A DNA stretch of 64,000 nt, from contig JALVYU010000011.1 of the NCBI GenBank assembly GCA_027022365.1, forward strand, positions 1 through 64,000. The letters run 5' to 3'. A model generated the notes under the pieces. The model was not told the origin of the DNA, did no database searches, and saw only the letters and a program-made list of their open reading frames with translations. The DNA comes from Desulfurococcales archaeon. Its GTDB lineage: Archaea; Thermoproteota; Thermoprotei_A; Sulfolobales; Desulfurococcaceae. Position numbers and translations under genes: made by a program. Below are positions 817-6,426 of the stretch, piece by piece. The stretch's first letter is position 1, and each line of letters opens with the position of its first letter.

Positions 817-1371
817 TTATTTTTCTCCTTCTTCCTCCTTCTTTTCAAGCGGGAGAATCCTAGCCTTATTAGAGACTATAGTTGATGCGCCCTCAGGATC
901 TATTAGAATAAATGTAAAAGGTATCTCGCCATTACGTGCTTTCTCAATCATTTTCTTCTTCTCAGCACATGTTTCGGGCGGTGCCTCGCCTTCTTCACAC
1001 AAGAACTCTATTTTGTCGAGAACATCGAGTAAGACGCCCTCAATAGTCGTTATATACCCGAGCGACGCCGGACCCGGAGTGATCTCAACCCCGAGCTCAG
1101 GTATTACAATAGATGCCGTTGAAGAGCGTACAACGAGCGAGTTAACATCATTAGGGTCTCTGACTTCTACGACGATTTTTCTCGGGCCCTTAATCTCTGC
1201 TAACCGTACATCGTTCCACCGGTATCCACAATTCCCGCATTTTCCCGACGATATTATTATTTTCCCGATGAGAGGCATATCATATAAGAACTCCTCAACC
1301 TTAAAGTTACGCCCACATATCGGGCACTCAACAGTATACTCGAGTATCTTCCTAGGTTTCTTTTCAGACAT
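817..1371 (-). CDS. ZPR1-family C4 zinc-finger protein
   Basis: CPICG...CGNCGY zinc finger; IPELGVEITPGP, ITTIEGVL and FILIDPEG are ZPR1 motifs. Confidence 0.9.
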   Translation of the reverse strand: MSEKKPRKILEYTVECPICGRNFKVEEFLYDMPLIGKIIISSGKCGNCGYRWNDVRLAEIKGPRKIVVEVRDPNDVNSLVVRSSTASIVIPELGVEITPGPASLGYITTIEGVLLDVLDKIEFLCEEGEAPPETCAEKKKMIEKARNGEIPFTFILIDPEGASTIVSNKARILPLEKKEEEGEK

Positions 1372-1382
1372 TCCTCCAACAC

Positions 1383-2282
1383 CTACATTGACTTTTTAGC
1401 TGGATGATACCTTATTAGGTGTGTACCATCACAGCTCGGCGCCCTGAAGAATTGCGGCCCTAGCCCCTCCCTGCACGTTGCCACAGTTAGTCCCAGGGAG
1501 ACCGATGCATCAATAATTGGTCTAAGAAGATGTTCACGTTGTTTTTTCCTAAGATACCTGTACCCATGGAGCCGTACACCTTCCTCTATGTAGAGTCGCC
1601 GCCAGTACTTGGAATACTCTGGAAATGAGTTCATCATCCTGGAAAGGTTATCGGGTCTTGCCTTATAGGTGGAGGCGACAATATGTTTTCCGCCGTTCTC
1701 CTTGATCCTGTGCACGAGCTCTTCAAGCATTCTAGGATCGTCATTAATGCCGGGTATCACAGGATCTATTCTCGCCCCGACAGGAATCCCGGCTTTACTG
1801 AGGGTTTTGATAGCCCGTAGTCTGCTTTGAGGGGGAGGGGCTCCGGGTTCGAGTTTTTTCGCCAATGAGGGATCCAGCGTGGTAATAGTGATCATTACGG
1901 CCGACGGGGTCTTTAGTAATAGATCGGCATCCCTTATGACGATGTCCGACTTAGTTGTGATCAATATTTTCAGAGCCCTACTCGATAGTAGTTCAAGAGC
2001 CTTCCTGGTTATCAACATCCATTTCTCGATGGGTGGATACGGGTCACTGCTCGTGCTCAGCTCGATGAAAAGCCTAGGATCGATGTGTCCAAGATCTCTC
2101 GATAATCTTCTGAGGAACCGCCTTTTCGGCTGGCTCGGCCTTCGCCCAATATAGGAGGTTGCATAGCAGTATAGGCAGAAATGACTACATCCTGTATATG
2201 GGTGTAGGCTGTATTTTCTAGGACAAGTACATAGCGGGCTTCGCCACGGATCGAAAACACGTACTACCTGCAGACGCACCAA
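1383..2282 (-). CDS. Radical SAM protein, SPL-like family
   Basis: PYTGCSHFCLYCYA (CxxxCxxC), STSSDPYPPIE, ITTKS, LEPGAPPP, RIDPVIPGIND. Confidence 0.85.
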   Translation of the reverse strand: MVRLQVVRVFDPWRSPLCTCPRKYSLHPYTGCSHFCLYCYATSYIGRRPSQPKRRFLRRLSRDLGHIDPRLFIELSTSSDPYPPIEKWMLITRKALELLSSRALKILITTKSDIVIRDADLLLKTPSAVMITITTLDPSLAKKLEPGAPPPQSRLRAIKTLSKAGIPVGARIDPVIPGINDDPRMLEELVHRIKENGGKHIVASTYKARPDNLSRMMNSFPEYSKYWRRLYIEEGVRLHGYRYLRKKQREHLLRPIIDASVSLGLTVATCREGLGPQFFRAPSCDGTHLIRYHPAKKSM

Positions 2283-2304
2283 TATATCGCACCAGAGGAT
2301 AAGC

Positions 2305-2381
2305 GGGTGTACCCCGCCCGACCGACCCCCCTCATATCCATACCCCGTAACGGGGTCTCAGGGAGTGTGAGGAGGCGGGGC
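2305..2381 (-). ncRNA. H/ACA pseudouridylation guide sRNA (single hairpin with K-turn)
   Basis: Minus strand: lower stem GCCCCGCC/GGCGGGGU, pocket strands UCCUCAC and CGGUCG, upper stem ACUCCC/GGGGGU, UGA/UGA K-turn and apical stem ACCCCG/CGGGGU. The ACA lies 14 nt from the top of the pocket. It forms a GC-rich island in an AT-rich intergenic region. Confidence 0.75.
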
Positions 2382-2471
2382 ATTGTTAGAATATATTATT
2401 TATGTAGGGGTTAAAGTTTACCGCTCAGCCATACTCTATAAGGTTTTTATTTTGATCTCTAATGAGAATTC

Positions 2472-3092
2472 ATGGTGATACAGGGGTTGGTTACCGGGAT
2501 TGTAGGAATCGCTATGACCGAGATAGCCGAGTTCGTTACCCGTGCAATTGATTCTATAAAAGACCACGAAGTAGAAAAGATGATTAATACACTTATAGAT
2601 GCCTATAGTGGCCACAAGATCCTCGTCATGGGCGCTGGCCGTAGCGGCTTAGTTGGTAAAGCATTTGCAATGAGATTACTGCATCTCGGTTTCCAAGTCT
2701 ATGTGCTGGGTGAAACAATTGTTCCAAGGATCAGTAAGGGCGACGTTGTCATAGCGATCTCAGGCTCCGGGCGCACCAAACTCATAGTAACAGCGGCCGA
2801 GGCAGCCAAACAGGTTGGAGCAAAAATCATAGCTATCACGAGCTACCCTAACAGTCCTCTTGGAAGACTTGCCGATGTGGTGGTCGTCGTTCCGGGTAGG
2901 ACAAAGATTGCGGCTGAAGAAGACTACTTTACAAGACAGATACTAGGCATACACGAGCCCCTAGCTCCGCTCGGAACCTTGTTCGAGGACACCGCAATGA
3001 TCTTTCTCGACGGAGTAGTGGTTGGGCTCATGAAGAAACTCGGCAAGACAGAAGAAGATCTAAGGAATGCTCATGCAAATATAGAGTTCTAA
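2472..3092 (+). CDS. hxlB: 6-phospho-3-hexuloisomerase (SIS domain)
   Basis: [35 protein letters not shown] and the C-terminal HANIE. Confidence 0.93.
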
Positions 3093-3158
3093 TTTAGCAG
3101 CTTATAGGCGTGACGAAGTCATCTTAATAAGCGGTTTAGATAGTTTCTTTTCTACAAG

Positions 3159-3902
3159 GTGATACCATTGATAGAGAATAAGAGATCAATTGATGCTGGC
3201 TATGCGTTGTTGTTAGGGATATTTATTGCCAGCCTTGTATCGGCTAACTACTTAGCAGCCAAAATAGCGGTGCTCGGCACCATAGCTCCCAATATCACGC
3301 TCCTCGTTCCCGCGGGAGTAGTCGCTTACGCTGTCACGTTCACTGCAACTGACATCATCGGCGAAGTCTATGGGAAGAAGGCTGCATCGATGGCTGTAAT
3401 GATAGGATTATTCATACAGTTTCTCATAATGTTCTATTCATTAATAGCTCTACTAATGCCGATAGCTCCTTTCCAGGAAAACTATAACGTGTTCTTTAAC
3501 AAGGTTTATGGTGTAACTCCAAACATAGCGTTAGCAAGCGTACTCGCATATCTAGTAAGCCAAAACCATGATGTCTGGGCATTTCATTTCTGGAAAAGAC
3601 TGACCCGCGGTAAATGGTTGTGGCTGAGAAATAATGCTAGCACTATAGTGAGCCAGTTGATCGACACGACAATATTCATAACGCTAGCCTTTGGTGTCTT
3701 CCCCATATTTCTTGGAGGAGTCTCCATTCCGTGGAGCCTACTACCATTCACGATCTTAGGTCAATACATCGTCAAAGTGATGATAGCATTATTCGATACA
3801 CCATTCGTATATGCTGGCGTCTACCTGCTTAAACGCCTAGGCCTACACAATATAAGCATGAGCGAAGTGGTTCCAAGTGCAAGGACTGTTCAGACTAAAT
3901 GA
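3159..3902 (+). CDS. preQ0/preQ1 (7-deazaguanine) precursor transporter, YhhQ/VUT family
   Basis: Multi-pass membrane protein with TDIIGEVYG, ASVLAYLVSQNHDV, WLRNNASTIVSQLIDT and DTPFVY motifs. Confidence 0.88.
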   Translation: MIPLIENKRSIDAGYALLLGIFIASLVSANYLAAKIAVLGTIAPNITLLVPAGVVAYAVTFTATDIIGEVYGKKAASMAVMIGLFIQFLIMFYSLIALLMPIAPFQENYNVFFNKVYGVTPNIALASVLAYLVSQNHDVWAFHFWKRLTRGKWLWLRNNASTIVSQLIDTTIFITLAFGVFPIFLGGVSIPWSLLPFTILGQYIVKVMIALFDTPFVYAGVYLLKRLGLHNISMSEVVPSARTVQTK

Positions 3903-4611
3903 CAAGTTGGGTAGAAGACTTGTACTCATACTGAAAAACTATCCATGCTCGTGGGGAAAATGTAATTTTTGCCCGTTCCACCTCGAACAATCAACCAATA
4001 CTTGGGAGATAATAGTCTTCAATAGAAGAATAGTGAGAGAGGCTATCCGGGTGGCTAGTAGGGAGAACTATGAACGCGTCGCTGTTTTTAATGGTGGAAG
4101 CTTCAGCGAACTACCATACGATACCGTGAACGAGCTGGTGCCACTAGCCAAGAACAGAATATTCGAGATAGAATCACGCAGTAATTTCATCACCTATGAT
4201 TTTGTCAATAATTTGCTCAGACTATTGGCTCCGAGAAAACTAGTTATAAGAATAGGGTTCGAGGTCGCCGATGAAGAAATACGTGAGAAGCTCCTCAGAA
4301 AAGGCATGCCGGATTCGGAGATCAAGAGGATTCTATGGATAAGACAGCGTCTAAGAGGAGAAGGACTACCAGTCGAGTTCTGGGTCTATGTCTTGTTTGG
4401 AATAGAATATATACCCGAAGAAAAAGTTGTTGAGTCAGTGAAGTTCTTCAAGAAACGCTTTGACGGAGTAATAGCTATCAAGTATAAGAAGTATTTACCA
4501 GAACACCCAGAAGAAAAACCAGTATCGGAAAAACTAGCTCGTTTCTTAGAGAAAGAAGCGGACCTGGTTGATTGGGGTGGTGAGGAATGGGAGATCGGAG
4601 GAAAGAACTAA
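3877..4611 (+). CDS. Short radical SAM protein resembling RaSEA (archaeosine biosynthesis)
   Basis: CSWGKCNFC (Cx4Cx2C), FNGGSF, EIESR and IGFEVADEEIREKLLRKG; overlaps both neighbouring genes. Confidence 0.7.
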   Translation: MQGLFRLNDKLGRRLVLILKNYPCSWGKCNFCPFHLEQSTNTWEIIVFNRRIVREAIRVASRENYERVAVFNGGSFSELPYDTVNELVPLAKNRIFEIESRSNFITYDFVNNLLRLLAPRKLVIRIGFEVADEEIREKLLRKGMPDSEIKRILWIRQRLRGEGLPVEFWVYVLFGIEYIPEEKVVESVKFFKKRFDGVIAIKYKKYLPEHPEEKPVSEKLARFLEKEADLVDWGGEEWEIGGKN

Positions 4612-5285
4612 AAGATCTCGAGGTTATATGGGACGGCAATAACCTGGACTGGGTCAAGCCCAGAGAATGTAGGGAGTATCTCAGAGGAGTGGGGCTCAAA
4701 TACCTTCTAAACGAGTACTTCGAGGAAGGCTTCAAGAAATTACTCAGAGAATACAGGCCGCGGAAACACTATCCTGTAGGTCTCATAATGCCGTGTAGCT
4801 ATGGGAAACCATACAGTAACAGCTACATACACTACATTATTAGGAAGAGCATAGCGGATCTCATAAGACAGGGCAAAATACACGAGATAATCGTTACAAA
4901 TGCTGGCGTTATCCCTAGAGAACTCGATGAGTACTGGCCCTACGTGGCCTACGACTGGAACCCCGTCTATGAGACTCCCGAGATAAAAGAATGGTACACG
5001 AGGGTATTAGAGAAAAGGCTCAAGAAGTATATAAGTACATTCCGTAGCTACTACGATAGATTCGCAGCGTATCTACGCTGGAACAGTGATAGCTGGAAAG
5101 CAGTGGAGAAAGTATCGCAGGAGCTGGGAATAGATATCCCTAATCTCGTGCCTAAAACAGTGTCACGCGAGGAAATAATCGAGGCATCCCTGAACGGCTT
5201 GTATGAGGATGAAGACATAGTATTGATTACAGAAGTGTCTCTGAAGAGTTTAAGGGAAAAACTCGTTAAGCTCCTTGGCGAGTAA
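4587..5285 (+). CDS. Stand-alone ArcS-like (DUF5591-type) domain protein
   Basis: PCSYGKPYSNSYIH matches the ArcS PCx3KPYx2Sx2H signature; also GVIPRELD and AYDW. Confidence 0.75.
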   Translation: MGDRRKELKDLEVIWDGNNLDWVKPRECREYLRGVGLKYLLNEYFEEGFKKLLREYRPRKHYPVGLIMPCSYGKPYSNSYIHYIIRKSIADLIRQGKIHEIIVTNAGVIPRELDEYWPYVAYDWNPVYETPEIKEWYTRVLEKRLKKYISTFRSYYDRFAAYLRWNSDSWKAVEKVSQELGIDIPNLVPKTVSREEIIEASLNGLYEDEDIVLITEVSLKSLREKLVKLLGE

Positions 5286-5298
5286 TAGCCCTTTTTGT

Positions 5299-6426
5299 CT
5301 AGGAGAGCACTTCTTCTATGAATCTTCCATTCTCATAGATTAGGTCTCCATCTGCGTAGACCCTGTGTTTCTTCATGTCCTTAATCATATCCCAGTGTAT
5401 AGCGCTAACATTCTTGCCTCCGCACTCGGGATAAGCTGCACCAAGTGCCATGTGGATAGTGCCGCCTATCTTCTCGTCAAACAATATTTCTTTCGTGAAC
5501 CTTGTTATGTTATAGTTGAGTCCAAAAGCTATTTCCCCGAGTCTTTTTGCGCCGTCATCGGTCTCAAGCATCTTCTTAAGGAACTCCTCGCCTCTTCTTG
5601 CCTTTGCTTCGACAACAACTCCTCTTTTGAATACTAGCTTTACACCTTCTACCTCCACACCTCTCCATATGGCTGGATAATCGAACTCCACCCATCCGTC
5701 GACGCTGTCCTCTATGGGTGCTGAGAACACTTCTCCTCCAGGCATGTTGTAGTGTCCATCGTCATTGATCCATTTGCGTCCATCAACTCGTAGGGTTAGC
5801 TCGATTCCGGGGCCAACATATTTTAGCTCGCTAACCTTGTTTAGGAAATTGGCGATTTTCTCCTGCTTCTTACCTATCTCGATCCATGCCTTAACAGGGT
5901 CGGGTGAATCACTATAGGTTGCGTGGAACACGAAGTCCTGGTAGTCCAGTATACTCATGCCTGCTTCCTGCGCTAATGCTCTTGTCGGGAAGGGTGCTAC
6001 AACCCATTTTAGCTCCCCCTTCGCGCTCCTCTGCATAAAGATCATGTTTAGCTCTCTCCTCGCCTGGCTCCTCTTCTTGAGTTTCTCAGGATTAATTCCC
6101 ATCAGGGGCTTCGTGTGGCTCGGGCTCAAGATGTTTATGAAGGCGTTGACTTTCTCTACAATCTCCTTTTCGATTAGACTCACATGGGACAGTACATCAT
6201 CGGTTGCGTACTTGTAGAAAACCTCACTGATTGATTCATCTCCTAGATTTATCATGAGCGGGTAGGCGCCTTTCTGGACGGTATATTTCACTATTTCTCT
6301 AACTAGTGGTAGCGCCTCTACGCCTCCGGAAATAACGACTTCTTCTCCTTTCCCAAGATAGACACAATACTCTGTTATTAGTCTGGCTAAATTACTGATC
6401 CTTGGATCAACCATGTTGTTCACCAT
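5299..6426 (-). CDS. Aminopeptidase, M29 (thermophilic metalloprotease/AmpS family)
   Basis: NMPGGEVF, RLGEIAFG, LFDEKIGGTIHMALG and SAIHWDM. Confidence 0.93.
   Translation of the reverse strand: MVNNMVDPRISNLARLITEYCVYLGKGEEVVISGGVEALPLVREIVKYTVQKGAYPLMINLGDESISEVFYKYATDDVLSHVSLIEKEIVEKVNAFINILSPSHTKPLMGINPEKLKKRSQARRELNMIFMQRSAKGELKWVVAPFPTRALAQEAGMSILDYQDFVFHATYSDSPDPVKAWIEIGKKQEKIANFLNKVSELKYVGPGIELTLRVDGRKWINDDGHYNMPGGEVFSAPIEDSVDGWVEFDYPAIWRGVEVEGVKLVFKRGVVVEAKARRGEEFLKKMLETDDGAKRLGEIAFGLNYNITRFTKEILFDEKIGGTIHMALGAAYPECGGKNVSAIHWDMIKDMKKHRVYADGDLIYENGRFIEEVLS

Follow-up and report, generated by a model that had tools for sequence, protein, structure and literature searches.

The described route to archaeosine (G+) that most resembles the locus reported here is the two-subunit ArcS-RaSEA system of Euryarchaeota, in which, in Thermococcus kodakarensis, the alpha subunit is a lysine transferase and the beta subunit a radical SAM lyase. 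The T. kodakarensis ArcS is reported to require RaSEA for activity and to act even on preQ0 nucleoside (PMC11298593). Most Crenarchaea are described in the literature as lacking ArcS and as relying on QueF-like or GAT-QueC. The catalytic core of ArcS, C1 (DUF5591), is not confined to full-length proteins: stand-alone C1 domains are stated to occur in 'some archaea', and a phage stand-alone ArcS2 is reported to yield dG+ without a radical SAM partner (Hutinet 2023, PMC10516641), so that the C1 core may not always need such a partner. Likely archaeal preQ0 salvage via COG1738 has also been put forward (Zallot 2017, PMC5372724), and substrate specificity is reported to differ among members of the YhhQ/QPTR family (PMC11130926). 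We describe here an operon in which these elements come together, found in a 64,000-nucleotide stretch of DNA from a Desulfurococcales archaeon (contig JALVYU010000011.1), referred to below as the window (Table 1).

Table 1. Features of the operon, in coordinates of the window.
Feature	Coordinates	Strand	Start codon	Length (aa)	Remarks
Putative TATA-like element, TTAATAA	3124..3130	+			~30 nt 5' of the yhhQ start; candidate element read directly from the letters
yhhQ/QPTR-family (COG1738) 7-deazaguanine precursor transporter, ORF1	3159..3902	+	GTG	247	
Small radical SAM enzyme, RaSEA/QueL superfamily, own clade, ORF2	3877..4611	+	GTG	244	Proposed beta subunit (C-N lyase)
Stand-alone ArcS C1 (DUF5591) protein, ORF3	4587..5285	+	ATG	232	Motif PCSYGKPYSNSYIH; proposed alpha subunit, transferring an amine to the preQ0 nitrile

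The coordinates bear out the three overlapping same-strand genes of the preliminary description, with overlaps of 26 nt (ORF1/ORF2) and 25 nt (ORF2/ORF3), and the identities it gave to them hold at the domain level in Pfam and NCBIfam profile searches. A 66-nt gap precedes yhhQ, with hxlB on its far side, and an Rfam search of positions 2300-5500 at a permissive threshold gave no match inside the operon. A mobile or defence island was considered and rejected, as the GC content of the operon (0.43-0.45) is close to that of the flanks and the neighbours are housekeeping genes. Metagenome runs of hydrothermal vents, belonging to 6 studies, contain DNA of the window, with no RNA run among those listed. 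The transporter is a clear member of its family, matching Pfam Vut_1 (PF02592) with 171.3 bits (cut-off 27.2) and TIGR00697, 'queuosine precursor transporter', with 168.5 bits (cut-off 50.95); the E. coli-type model NF008406 is matched with only 37 bits against a cut-off of 252.

The third protein scores 57.4 bits against DUF5591 (cut-off 26) and 56.2 bits against the ArcS model NF040592 (cut-off 440). The latter match is restricted to model positions 286-424 of 575, so that ORF3 lacks the TGT-like N-terminal domain, C2 and PUA; the absence of the first and last of these had been noticed earlier and agrees with the extent of both the Pfam and the NCBIfam matches. The motif PCX3KPYX2SX2H, in the form published in PMC10516641 and PMC5699537, is nevertheless complete (P69, C70, K74, P75, Y76, S79, H82) and invariant in 19 of 19 homologues. 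The AF2 model of ORF3 (pLDDT 84.8) has 2q07/AF0587 as its sole significant fold match. By sequence, the best matches of ORF3 are the C1 halves, at the C terminus, of radical SAM-C1 fusions (31-32% identity across ~200 aa, 96-100 bits), and a canonical ArcS fragment reaches 27 bits.

The radical SAM protein is more distant from its characterised relatives. ORF2 has no Pfam match at E<=0.01, and its sole NCBIfam match is TIGR01210 (RaSEA), at 46.8 bits against a cut-off of 212.15 and covering model positions 7-190 of 313; the region corresponding to positions 190-313, the C-terminal third, is missing. Two relatives (P0121 and P0123) reach 60-64 bits with the same model. The protein contains exactly three cysteines, C24, C29 and C32, which are spaced as Cx4Cx2C and invariant. 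This spacing had been regarded as atypical, a view that has to be withdrawn, since it is also found in QueL-like proteins and in some canonical RaSEAs. The RaSEA-like motifs pointed out in the preliminary description (FNGGSF, E..SR and IGFE..DEEIR....KG) are present and largely invariant among 19 homologues, and G74, S75, E78, E99, G127, E129, R136 and K142 are common to all groups compared. The AF2 model (pLDDT 90.7) forms a partial TIM barrel, as in other radical SAM enzymes. The closest solved structure is that of a queuine lyase with bound SAM and queuine (PDB 6P78), both in a profile search of the PDB (E 3e-19, 72.6 bits) and as the top Foldseek match of the model (E 2.8e-12, TM 0.75/0.79, whole length). 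In the queuine lyase comparison, however, a QueL-like representative (P0163) reaches 162.5 bits against the 72.6 of ORF2, which makes ORF2 a distant relative of QueL.

In the trees, the small radical SAM proteins form a clade of their own (support 99/97), apart from the canonical RaSEAs, and a further split (99/99) unites them with the QueL-like proteins, whose own clade (100/99) excludes them. Rooting on the Elp3 of the same genome introduced a very long outgroup branch (3.47), and an AU test did not reject the placement of QueL and the outgroup on one side of a branch (p 0.545), so that we describe QueL and the mini clade as adjacent in the unrooted tree only and make no claim that they are sisters. 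At three positions (R101, Y171, E181) the mini clade carries the residues of the RaSEA groups, and QueL differs at all three. The earlier placement of ORF2 in the RaSEA clade is thus not upheld, as it scores below the TIGR01210 cut-off and groups with QueL. The term 'mini-RaSEA' fits only in part, as the protein lies below the model cut-off and belongs to its own clade beside QueL. The low TIGR01210 score, the missing region and the grouping with QueL make any transfer of function from RaSEA indirect.

We surveyed 60 archaeal loci with the radical SAM gene, 54 of them assessable. A C1 gene is present in 50 of the 60, and in 6 of the 10 without one a contig edge truncates the locus; the two genes lie at most 138 nt apart on one strand in 44 of the 54 assessable loci and are unlinked in 4, as likewise in genomes G034 and G164. 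The radical SAM gene comes first in 34 loci and the C1 gene in 16. Upstream on the same strand, YhhQ is found in 27 of the 60 loci, within 300 nt in 24 of those 27. Moreover, a 451-aa ORF from another genus (L068) fuses a radical SAM domain to DUF5591, and a second such fusion is 423 aa long (P0211). The arrangement is not due to chance, since most related loci have C1 next to the radical SAM gene, in either order, and the two domains are also fused elsewhere.

Among 201 genomes of the class, the radical SAM gene, called at a score of at least 301 bits, is present in 28, from 17 genera. These 28 carriers include 25 with DUF5591, 23 with YhhQ and all 28 with arcTGT, so that the co-conservation of the genes expected in the preliminary description is found in genomes as well as in loci. 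Plain QueC replaces YhhQ in three of the remaining five carriers (G034, G164 and G111), and neither was seen in the other two (G196 and G008). As the pair accompanies either source of preQ0, we place it after preQ0 in the pathway. GAT-QueC-sized ORFs occur in all 38 genomes of one family (f4) and well-scoring QueF-like matches (at least 36 bits) in 8 genomes of the class, none of them with the pair. The 28 carriers contain no QueC of GAT-QueC size and no QueF-like gene that scores well, which makes the pair a candidate for a further archaeosine route in Thermoproteota. Weak matches to PF14489 (QueF) of 21-29 bits, three of them at or just over the cut-off, occur in five of the 28, and these five may possess an alternative synthase.

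The host genome is 99.97% complete. As anticipated, it contains an arcTGT, a single gene on another contig (C26) and unlinked to the operon, which matches TIGR00432 (TgtA) with 536.8 bits (cut-off 350); the bacterial Tgt model gives 103.7 bits against 306.75, and the archaeal TgtA is the only TGT in the genome. In further agreement with the preliminary description, this nearly complete genome yielded no QueC over the cut-off, no PTPS/QueD, no QueF or QueF-like gene and no full-length ArcS anywhere. The QueE model TIGR03365 passed its cut-off in the B. subtilis control alone. Its other matches were weak (20-29 bits, in ORFs of 370-588 aa) and of the generic radical SAM kind, which weakly suggests that QueE is absent as well. 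Judged by its gene content, the genome appears unable to make preQ0.

We propose that the operon is probably a salvage-and-finish module for archaeosine, a minimal two-subunit synthase fed by salvaged preQ0. YhhQ would import a substrate that is presumably preQ0, and the unlinked arcTGT would exchange G15 of tRNA for it. The stand-alone C1 protein would then add an amine to the preQ0 nitrile through its PCX3KPYX2SX2H site, and if Thermococcus ArcS is taken as the model, the donor would be the lysine epsilon-amino group. The radical SAM protein, with one predicted [4Fe-4S] site at C24/C29/C32 and SAM as cosubstrate, would finally cleave the N-alkyl bond of the adduct to give the formamidine of G+, a C-N lyase step that would be of the same chemical type as those of RaSEA and bacterial queuine lyase. 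We infer that tRNA, and not the free base, is the substrate, and that the two proteins are physically associated. A consideration against this model is that ORF3 has no RNA-binding domain through which the predicted C1 protein would recognise tRNA.

Another hypothesis is that the pair converts imported preQ0, as the free base, nucleoside or nucleotide, into G+ base, which the crenarchaeal arcTGT would insert directly. The missing PUA, C2 and TGT-like N-terminal domains of C1 fit such a route, as do the translational coupling of the pair to an importer, the reported acceptance of preQ0 nucleoside and 5'-monophosphate by T. kodakarensis ArcS (PMC11298593) and homology models of arcTGT from ArcS-less Crenarchaeota, which perhaps accommodate G+ base (PMC5485725). 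However, free G+ base reportedly deamidates spontaneously to preQ0 (PMC5699537), a wasteful outcome for a hyperthermophile, it is said not to be used by canonical arcTGT (PMC5485725), and the pair is also found in QueC-positive genomes with no transporter linked to it. We therefore regard a free-base route as unlikely. A bolder version of it, to which we give an equally small chance, would make the small radical SAM clade the archaeal counterpart of queuine lyase, acting together with C1 on free imported 7-deazaguanines, not on tRNA, and producing G+ base or another amidine for insertion by the PUA-less arcTGT of this genome. If true, archaeosine would be made at the level of the base, and archaeal G+ synthesis would be linked directly in evolution to the bacterial salvage of queuine.

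It can also be asked whether the enzymology is as proposed and the chemistry differs in detail, the product being another amidine or 7-deazaguanine derivative, or the donor amine not being lysine. Neither characterised relative falls within the radical SAM clade, whose last 50 C-terminal residues are unique to it and strongly conserved, and in the L068 fusion the motif His is replaced by Trp, evidence that the chemistry of the group is variable. Against this, the C1 catalytic motif is intact and invariant, most carrier genomes show no other G+ synthase, and archaeal tRNA is reported to contain G+ almost universally (PMC5485725), with Stetteria reported to lack it (PMC6313347). A different product or donor seems to us improbable, to about the degree of the free-base routes.

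We see still less reason to adopt a reading in which the radical SAM protein resembles QueL in function and dealkylates imported N-alkylated 7-deazaguanines, such as the queuine of bacterial neighbours, with C1 helping to turn the product back into a precursor that can be used. It would account for queuine lyase being the nearest solved protein in both sequence and fold, for the Atlas clusters nearest to ORF2, which are short bacterial radical SAM proteins, and for an importer of the QPTR family in the operon. Queuine lyase, however, yields preQ1, from which we infer no plausible C1 chemistry leading to preQ0 or G+; the pair is also present in genomes with QueC and without YhhQ; and the mini clade stands apart from the QueL clade and has RaSEA-type residues at 101, 171 and 181. 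That the pair makes dG+ in DNA, as reported for phage ArcS2 with DpdA2 (PMC10516641), is hardly credible: another stand-alone C1 family of the class does adjoin a TGT-like (DpdA-like) gene and NurA (L076), but the TGT-like protein of L076, used as a query against the genome, matches arcTGT alone (25 bits), ORF3 shares no more than 26% identity (52 bits) with the DpdA-linked C1, and the flanking genes are housekeeping ones.

Returning to archaeosine synthesis on tRNA from salvaged preQ0, the pair is most likely a stripped-down, unannotated variant of the known two-enzyme route. The arrangement had been thought undescribed; this holds for the pairing of C1 with a small radical SAM protein, of which no description was found in the searchable literature, but not for stand-alone C1 or archaeal preQ0 salvage, both already published in the reports cited at the outset. 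The pair would define a minimal ArcS/RaSEA catalytic core of ~480 residues in two small proteins devoid of RNA-binding domains, features that recommend it for studies of structure and mechanism. The position of queuine lyase beside an archaeal clade linked to archaeosine leads to a testable idea on the origin of that salvage enzyme. Annotation could also be improved for about 170 radical SAM homologues (168 counted, ~245 aa), now named 'hypothetical' or 'MiaB family', and for ~130 C1 homologues carrying only the name 'DUF5591'. Among the named sources, Pyrolobus fumarii has a C1 member, and Desulfurococcaceae archaeon MEX13E-LK6-19 has both proteins.

Compared with the crenarchaeal G+ synthases QueF-like and GAT-QueC, the pair has the same presumed role, from preQ0 to G+, with unrelated folds. 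The viral ArcS2-DpdA systems (Vibrio phage nt-1, STSV2) are reported to possess a likewise stand-alone DUF5591 core with the motif (Hutinet 2023, PMC10516641), but there the partner is DpdA, the target is DNA and no radical SAM partner is described, whereas the present genome lacks a DpdA-like gene. The radical SAM-ArcS core fusions L068 and P0211 contain the same two catalytic modules and no tRNA-binding domains; here the modules are two separate genes, and the radical SAM domain of the fusions belongs to a different clade (100/97). QueL of Clostridium spiroforme is similar to ORF2 in size (~250 aa), shares its Cx4Cx2C spacing, and both would cleave a C-N bond in a 7-deazaguanine side chain. 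ORF2 is, however, only ~20-26% identical to it and belongs to a separate clade; this clade is archaeal, and its partners are ArcS C1 and arcTGT in place of bacterial queuosine salvage. A close parallel is ArcS-RaSEA of T. kodakarensis and other Euryarchaeota, which likewise has two parts, a DUF5591/C1 core bearing PCX3KPYX2SX2H and a radical SAM protein from the TIGR01210 superfamily, and, like the present pair, stands downstream of arcTGT in the pathway. The alpha subunit proposed here differs in being reduced to 232 aa, with neither the TGT-like N-terminal domain nor C2 nor PUA, and the beta subunit to 244 aa. The latter has no counterpart of the model's C-terminal third and stands apart from the canonical RaSEAs, and the genes of the pair are often found in an operon with a transporter.

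A transporter gene (ORF1), a gene for a small radical SAM protein (ORF2) and a gene for a stand-alone C1 domain of ArcS (ORF3) form a compact operon, and the overlapping same-strand arrangement given in the preliminary description is confirmed, with overlaps of 26 and 25 nt. The GTG start of ORF2 is backed by homologue alignment, relatives beginning M-[LQ]-G-[VL]-F. As first assigned, ORF1 encodes a YhhQ/QPTR transporter, with scores above both curated cut-offs (Pfam and NCBIfam). ORF3 scores 57.4 bits against DUF5591 (cut-off 26); its match to the ArcS model (NCBIfam) is restricted to the C1 part and its PCX3KPYX2SX2H motif is invariant in 19/19 homologues, so that both the ArcS signature and the lack of the remaining ArcS domains hold. 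The sole significant fold match of its predicted structure (pLDDT 84.8) is 2Q07 (AF0587; E 4e-5). The closest sequences are the C1 halves of radical SAM-C1 fusions (31-32% identity over ~200-216 residues, 96-100 bits), compared with 52 bits for a DpdA-linked stand-alone C1 and 27 bits for a canonical ArcS fragment. Further upstream lie a guide RNA match and two adjoining genes (see table).

Features of the window and of related loci; positions refer to the window unless a fetched locus (L) or contig (C) is named
Feature	Position	Strand	Context	Basis
ZPR1 zinc-finger homologue adjoining PA0069/Rv2578c-like radical SAM protein	817-2282	-		TIGR00340, 146.8 bits (ZPR1); 120 bits, under cut-off of 360 (radical SAM)
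Archaeal H/ACA guide RNA family Pab91 match	2308-2381	-	gap between PA0069-like gene and hxlB	RF02795, 39.7 bits, E 2.5e-5; gathering score 71 not reached
hxlB	2472-3092		upstream of operon	TIGR03127, 190.6 bits
ORF1, yhhQ/QPTR transporter, 247 aa	3159-3902	+	operon	ORF listing
ORF2, radical SAM protein, 244 aa	3877-4611	+	operon	ORF listing
ORF3, DUF5591 protein, 232 aa	4587-5285	+	operon	ORF listing
M29 aminopeptidase gene	5299-6426		convergent, downstream of operon	
yhhQ locus with insertion	L016:2768-4933		Acidilobaceae	
Radical SAM-DUF5591 fusion, 451 aa	L068:3452-4807	+		
DUF5591/TGT-like/NurA cluster	L076:923-3853	-	family f4	
PUA-only ORF, 161 aa	L084:1207-1692	+	own genome, contig C26	
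Second YhhQ copy and QueF-family match	C52:56823-58476		genome G194	

ORF2 had been presented as a mini-RaSEA, a name that stands only in part. RaSEA (TIGR01210) is its single NCBIfam match, but at 46.8 bits against a cut-off of 212 and over model positions 7-190 of 313 only; the Pfam search returned no match. Among solved structures, the family profile matched the bacterial queuine lyase QueL alone (6P78; E 3e-19, 72.6 bits), and ORF2 by itself scores 47.6 bits against it, about equal to its RaSEA score. A fold search with the AF2 model of ORF2 (pLDDT 90.7, pTM 0.88) gave a full-length match to 6P78 (E 2.8e-12, TM 0.75/0.79) and then, at TM ~0.5, Elp3 and further radical SAM enzymes; no RaSEA structure was among the matches of the PDB searches, and the fold comparison is thus limited to other enzymes. 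A protein atlas search likewise gave short bacterial radical SAM clusters. In a first tree, obtained by a quick search on 75 rows aligned to the family HMM, the clade of ORF2 and its relatives (the mini clade) joined QueL-like proteins with a support of 94, and an independent MAFFT alignment with an Elp3 outgroup gave 97. A careful unrooted tree without outgroup recovered the mini clade (99/97), the QueL-like proteins (100/99) and a split of the two from the rest (99/99), with canonical RaSEAs and radical SAM-C1 fusions on the opposite side. The AU test did not reject a branch with QueL and the outgroup together on the same side (p 0.545), so that, depending on the root, the mini clade could be sister to QueL or else branch off deepest among the sequences on the side of RaSEA. 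Judged by sequence, ORF2 and its clade are no canonical RaSEA under either placement. The mini clade has the RaSEA residue at R101, Y171 and E181, where QueL deviates, and agrees with QueL at G175 and N49. The cysteines of ORF2 are C24, C29 and C32, with no others; this Cx4Cx2C spacing, at first considered atypical, is common to QueL-like proteins and some RaSEAs, the first spacer being longer in most canonical RaSEAs. Two bacterial relatives of 344 aa found in the locus scan (L066 and L067, from Ferrimonas and Marinomonas; 28% identity) are probably members of a wider TIGR01210-like group.

The 168 homologues of ORF2 (~245 aa, named 'hypothetical' or 'MiaB family') all come from Desulfurococcales-like archaea, and when 1.84 billion representatives were searched exhaustively with the profile, only 7 clusters fell below 1e-30 before a drop to ~85 bits. 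Conservation of the operon is corroborated by 60 archaeal loci fetched around radical SAM homologues. C1 is present in 50 of them; among the other 10, 6 end at a contig edge and 4 (L047-L050) have room yet no gene. The two genes lie at most 138 nt apart on one strand in 44 of 54 assessable loci, the radical SAM gene preceding C1 in 34 loci and following it in 16. Upstream on the same strand, yhhQ occurs in 27/60 loci (within 300 nt in 24 of those), and in three Acidilobaceae loci (L016, L020 and L026) a 2.4-kb insertion with two ORFs, one ATPase-like (520 aa) and one of 198 aa, separates it from the radical SAM gene. In the class sample of 201 genomes, which are related and not independent (co-occurrence is given as raw counts), the radical SAM gene (profile, at least 301 bits) was found in 28 genomes of 17 genera, accompanied by arcTGT in 28/28, DUF5591 in 25/28 and YhhQ in 23/28. 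Three of the five carriers without YhhQ have QueC (G034, G164 and G111), in ORFs of plain QueC size (297-316 aa), and neither gene was seen in G196 (fragmented) and G008. The 173 non-carriers include 32 with YhhQ and 92 with QueC. The gene is rare in the phylum sample (6/301 genomes, 2 outside the class). GAT-QueC-sized ORFs (463-511 aa) occur in 38/38 genomes of family f4 and QueF-like matches of at least 36 bits in 8 genomes of the class sample, none of which has the pair of radical SAM and C1 genes. Weak PF14489 matches (21-29 bits, ORFs of 190-213 aa) are found in 5 pair genomes, 3 of them at or barely above the cut-off. In G194, which has the pair, ~1 kb separates a second copy of YhhQ from a weak QueF-family match (29.3 bits, 190-aa ORF).

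The host assembly (1.74 Mb, 44 contigs, 99.97% complete) contains a single TGT gene, an archaeal TgtA on contig C26 (TIGR00432, 536.8 bits, cut-off 350), in which Pfam found the TGT domain alone. No QueC above cut-off (best 20.2 bits), PTPS/QueD, QueF-family match, full-length ArcS, further DUF5591 or RaSEA-like gene, or DpdA-like transglycosylase was found in this genome, and the QueE model gave weak generic radical SAM matches only. Both the arcTGT and the absence of QueC, QueD and QueF-like genes are in line with the initial interpretation. Given these presences and absences, the organism appears from its gene content to be able to put 7-deazaguanine into tRNA but to be without preQ0-making genes. 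The PUA-only ORF on C26 follows a proteasome-activating ATPase gene, ~0.7 kb away from the 3' end of arcTGT, which itself has no PUA domain; as a speculation, the ORF might provide an RNA-binding module in trans. The 41 other genomes of the host's family in the class sample have arcTGT (41), YhhQ (11), QueC (3), DUF5591 (4) and QueF matches (0); many relatives therefore have the transglycosylase without a visible preQ0 source or archaeosine (G+) synthase. According to a review, G+ was not found in Stetteria hydrogenophila tRNA (PMC6313347).

ArcS of T. kodakarensis is reported to transfer lysine to preQ0 in tRNA, to accept also preQ0 nucleoside and its 5'-phosphate, and to be active only when complexed with RaSEA, which then makes G+ (PMC11298593). 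QueL binds SAM and queuine, according to the title of entry 6P78, and is reported to regenerate preQ1 from queuine (PMC11130926). Both relatives thus take an N-alkyl substituent off the side chain of a 7-deazaguanine. On the basis of the close linkage and of the fusion with the ArcS core, we propose with moderate confidence that C1 would attach an amine to the nitrile of preQ0 and that the small radical SAM enzyme would cut the amine adduct to yield G+. Since the pair is found with YhhQ or with QueC, it would act after preQ0 and not in import. The substrate is more likely tRNA, because arcTGT is the only transglycosylase of the genome and free G+ base is said to revert to preQ0 (PMC5699537); both points make action of the pair on the free base the less likely route. 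The initial interpretation, salvage of preQ0 followed by its conversion to G+, is supported in part: the gene identities, arcTGT and co-conservation favour it, but its radical SAM protein lies outside canonical RaSEA.

Fused forms exist in genus g28, where 448-497-aa ORFs combine a radical SAM domain with DUF5591 in 4/4 genomes, with QueC in all four and YhhQ in none. The fusion at L068 has CSWGKCVFC and PCSYRKPYYKSKTW, in which Trp replaces the motif His, and a database protein of 423 aa (P0211) shares its architecture. In family f4, the stand-alone C1 proteins belong to a class distinct from ORF3. At L076, a 181-aa DUF5591 protein with an intact motif is encoded beside a NurA-domain protein and a 300-aa TGT-like protein (27 bits against the TgtA model), and small DUF5591 ORFs of this kind occur in 24/38 genomes of f4. 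Although cellular, this locus has the look of a DNA-modification cluster of the DpdA-ArcS2 type and resembles the viral pairs of Hutinet 2023 (PMC10516641), a paper that also mentions stand-alone C1 domains in some archaea. Archaeal COG1738 homologues have been reported, with preQ0 salvage considered likely there (Zallot 2017; PMC5372724). Our literature search, of incomplete coverage, returned no description of a C1 and small radical SAM pair or of its relationship to QueL. Joint occurrence of arcS and RaSEA is reported for 196 Euryarchaea, and absence of arcS for most Crenarchaea (PMC11298593). Compared with these systems, the module may be regarded as a minimal, unfused pair of an ArcS core and a QueL/RaSEA-superfamily protein with a proposed lyase role, often coupled to a transporter.
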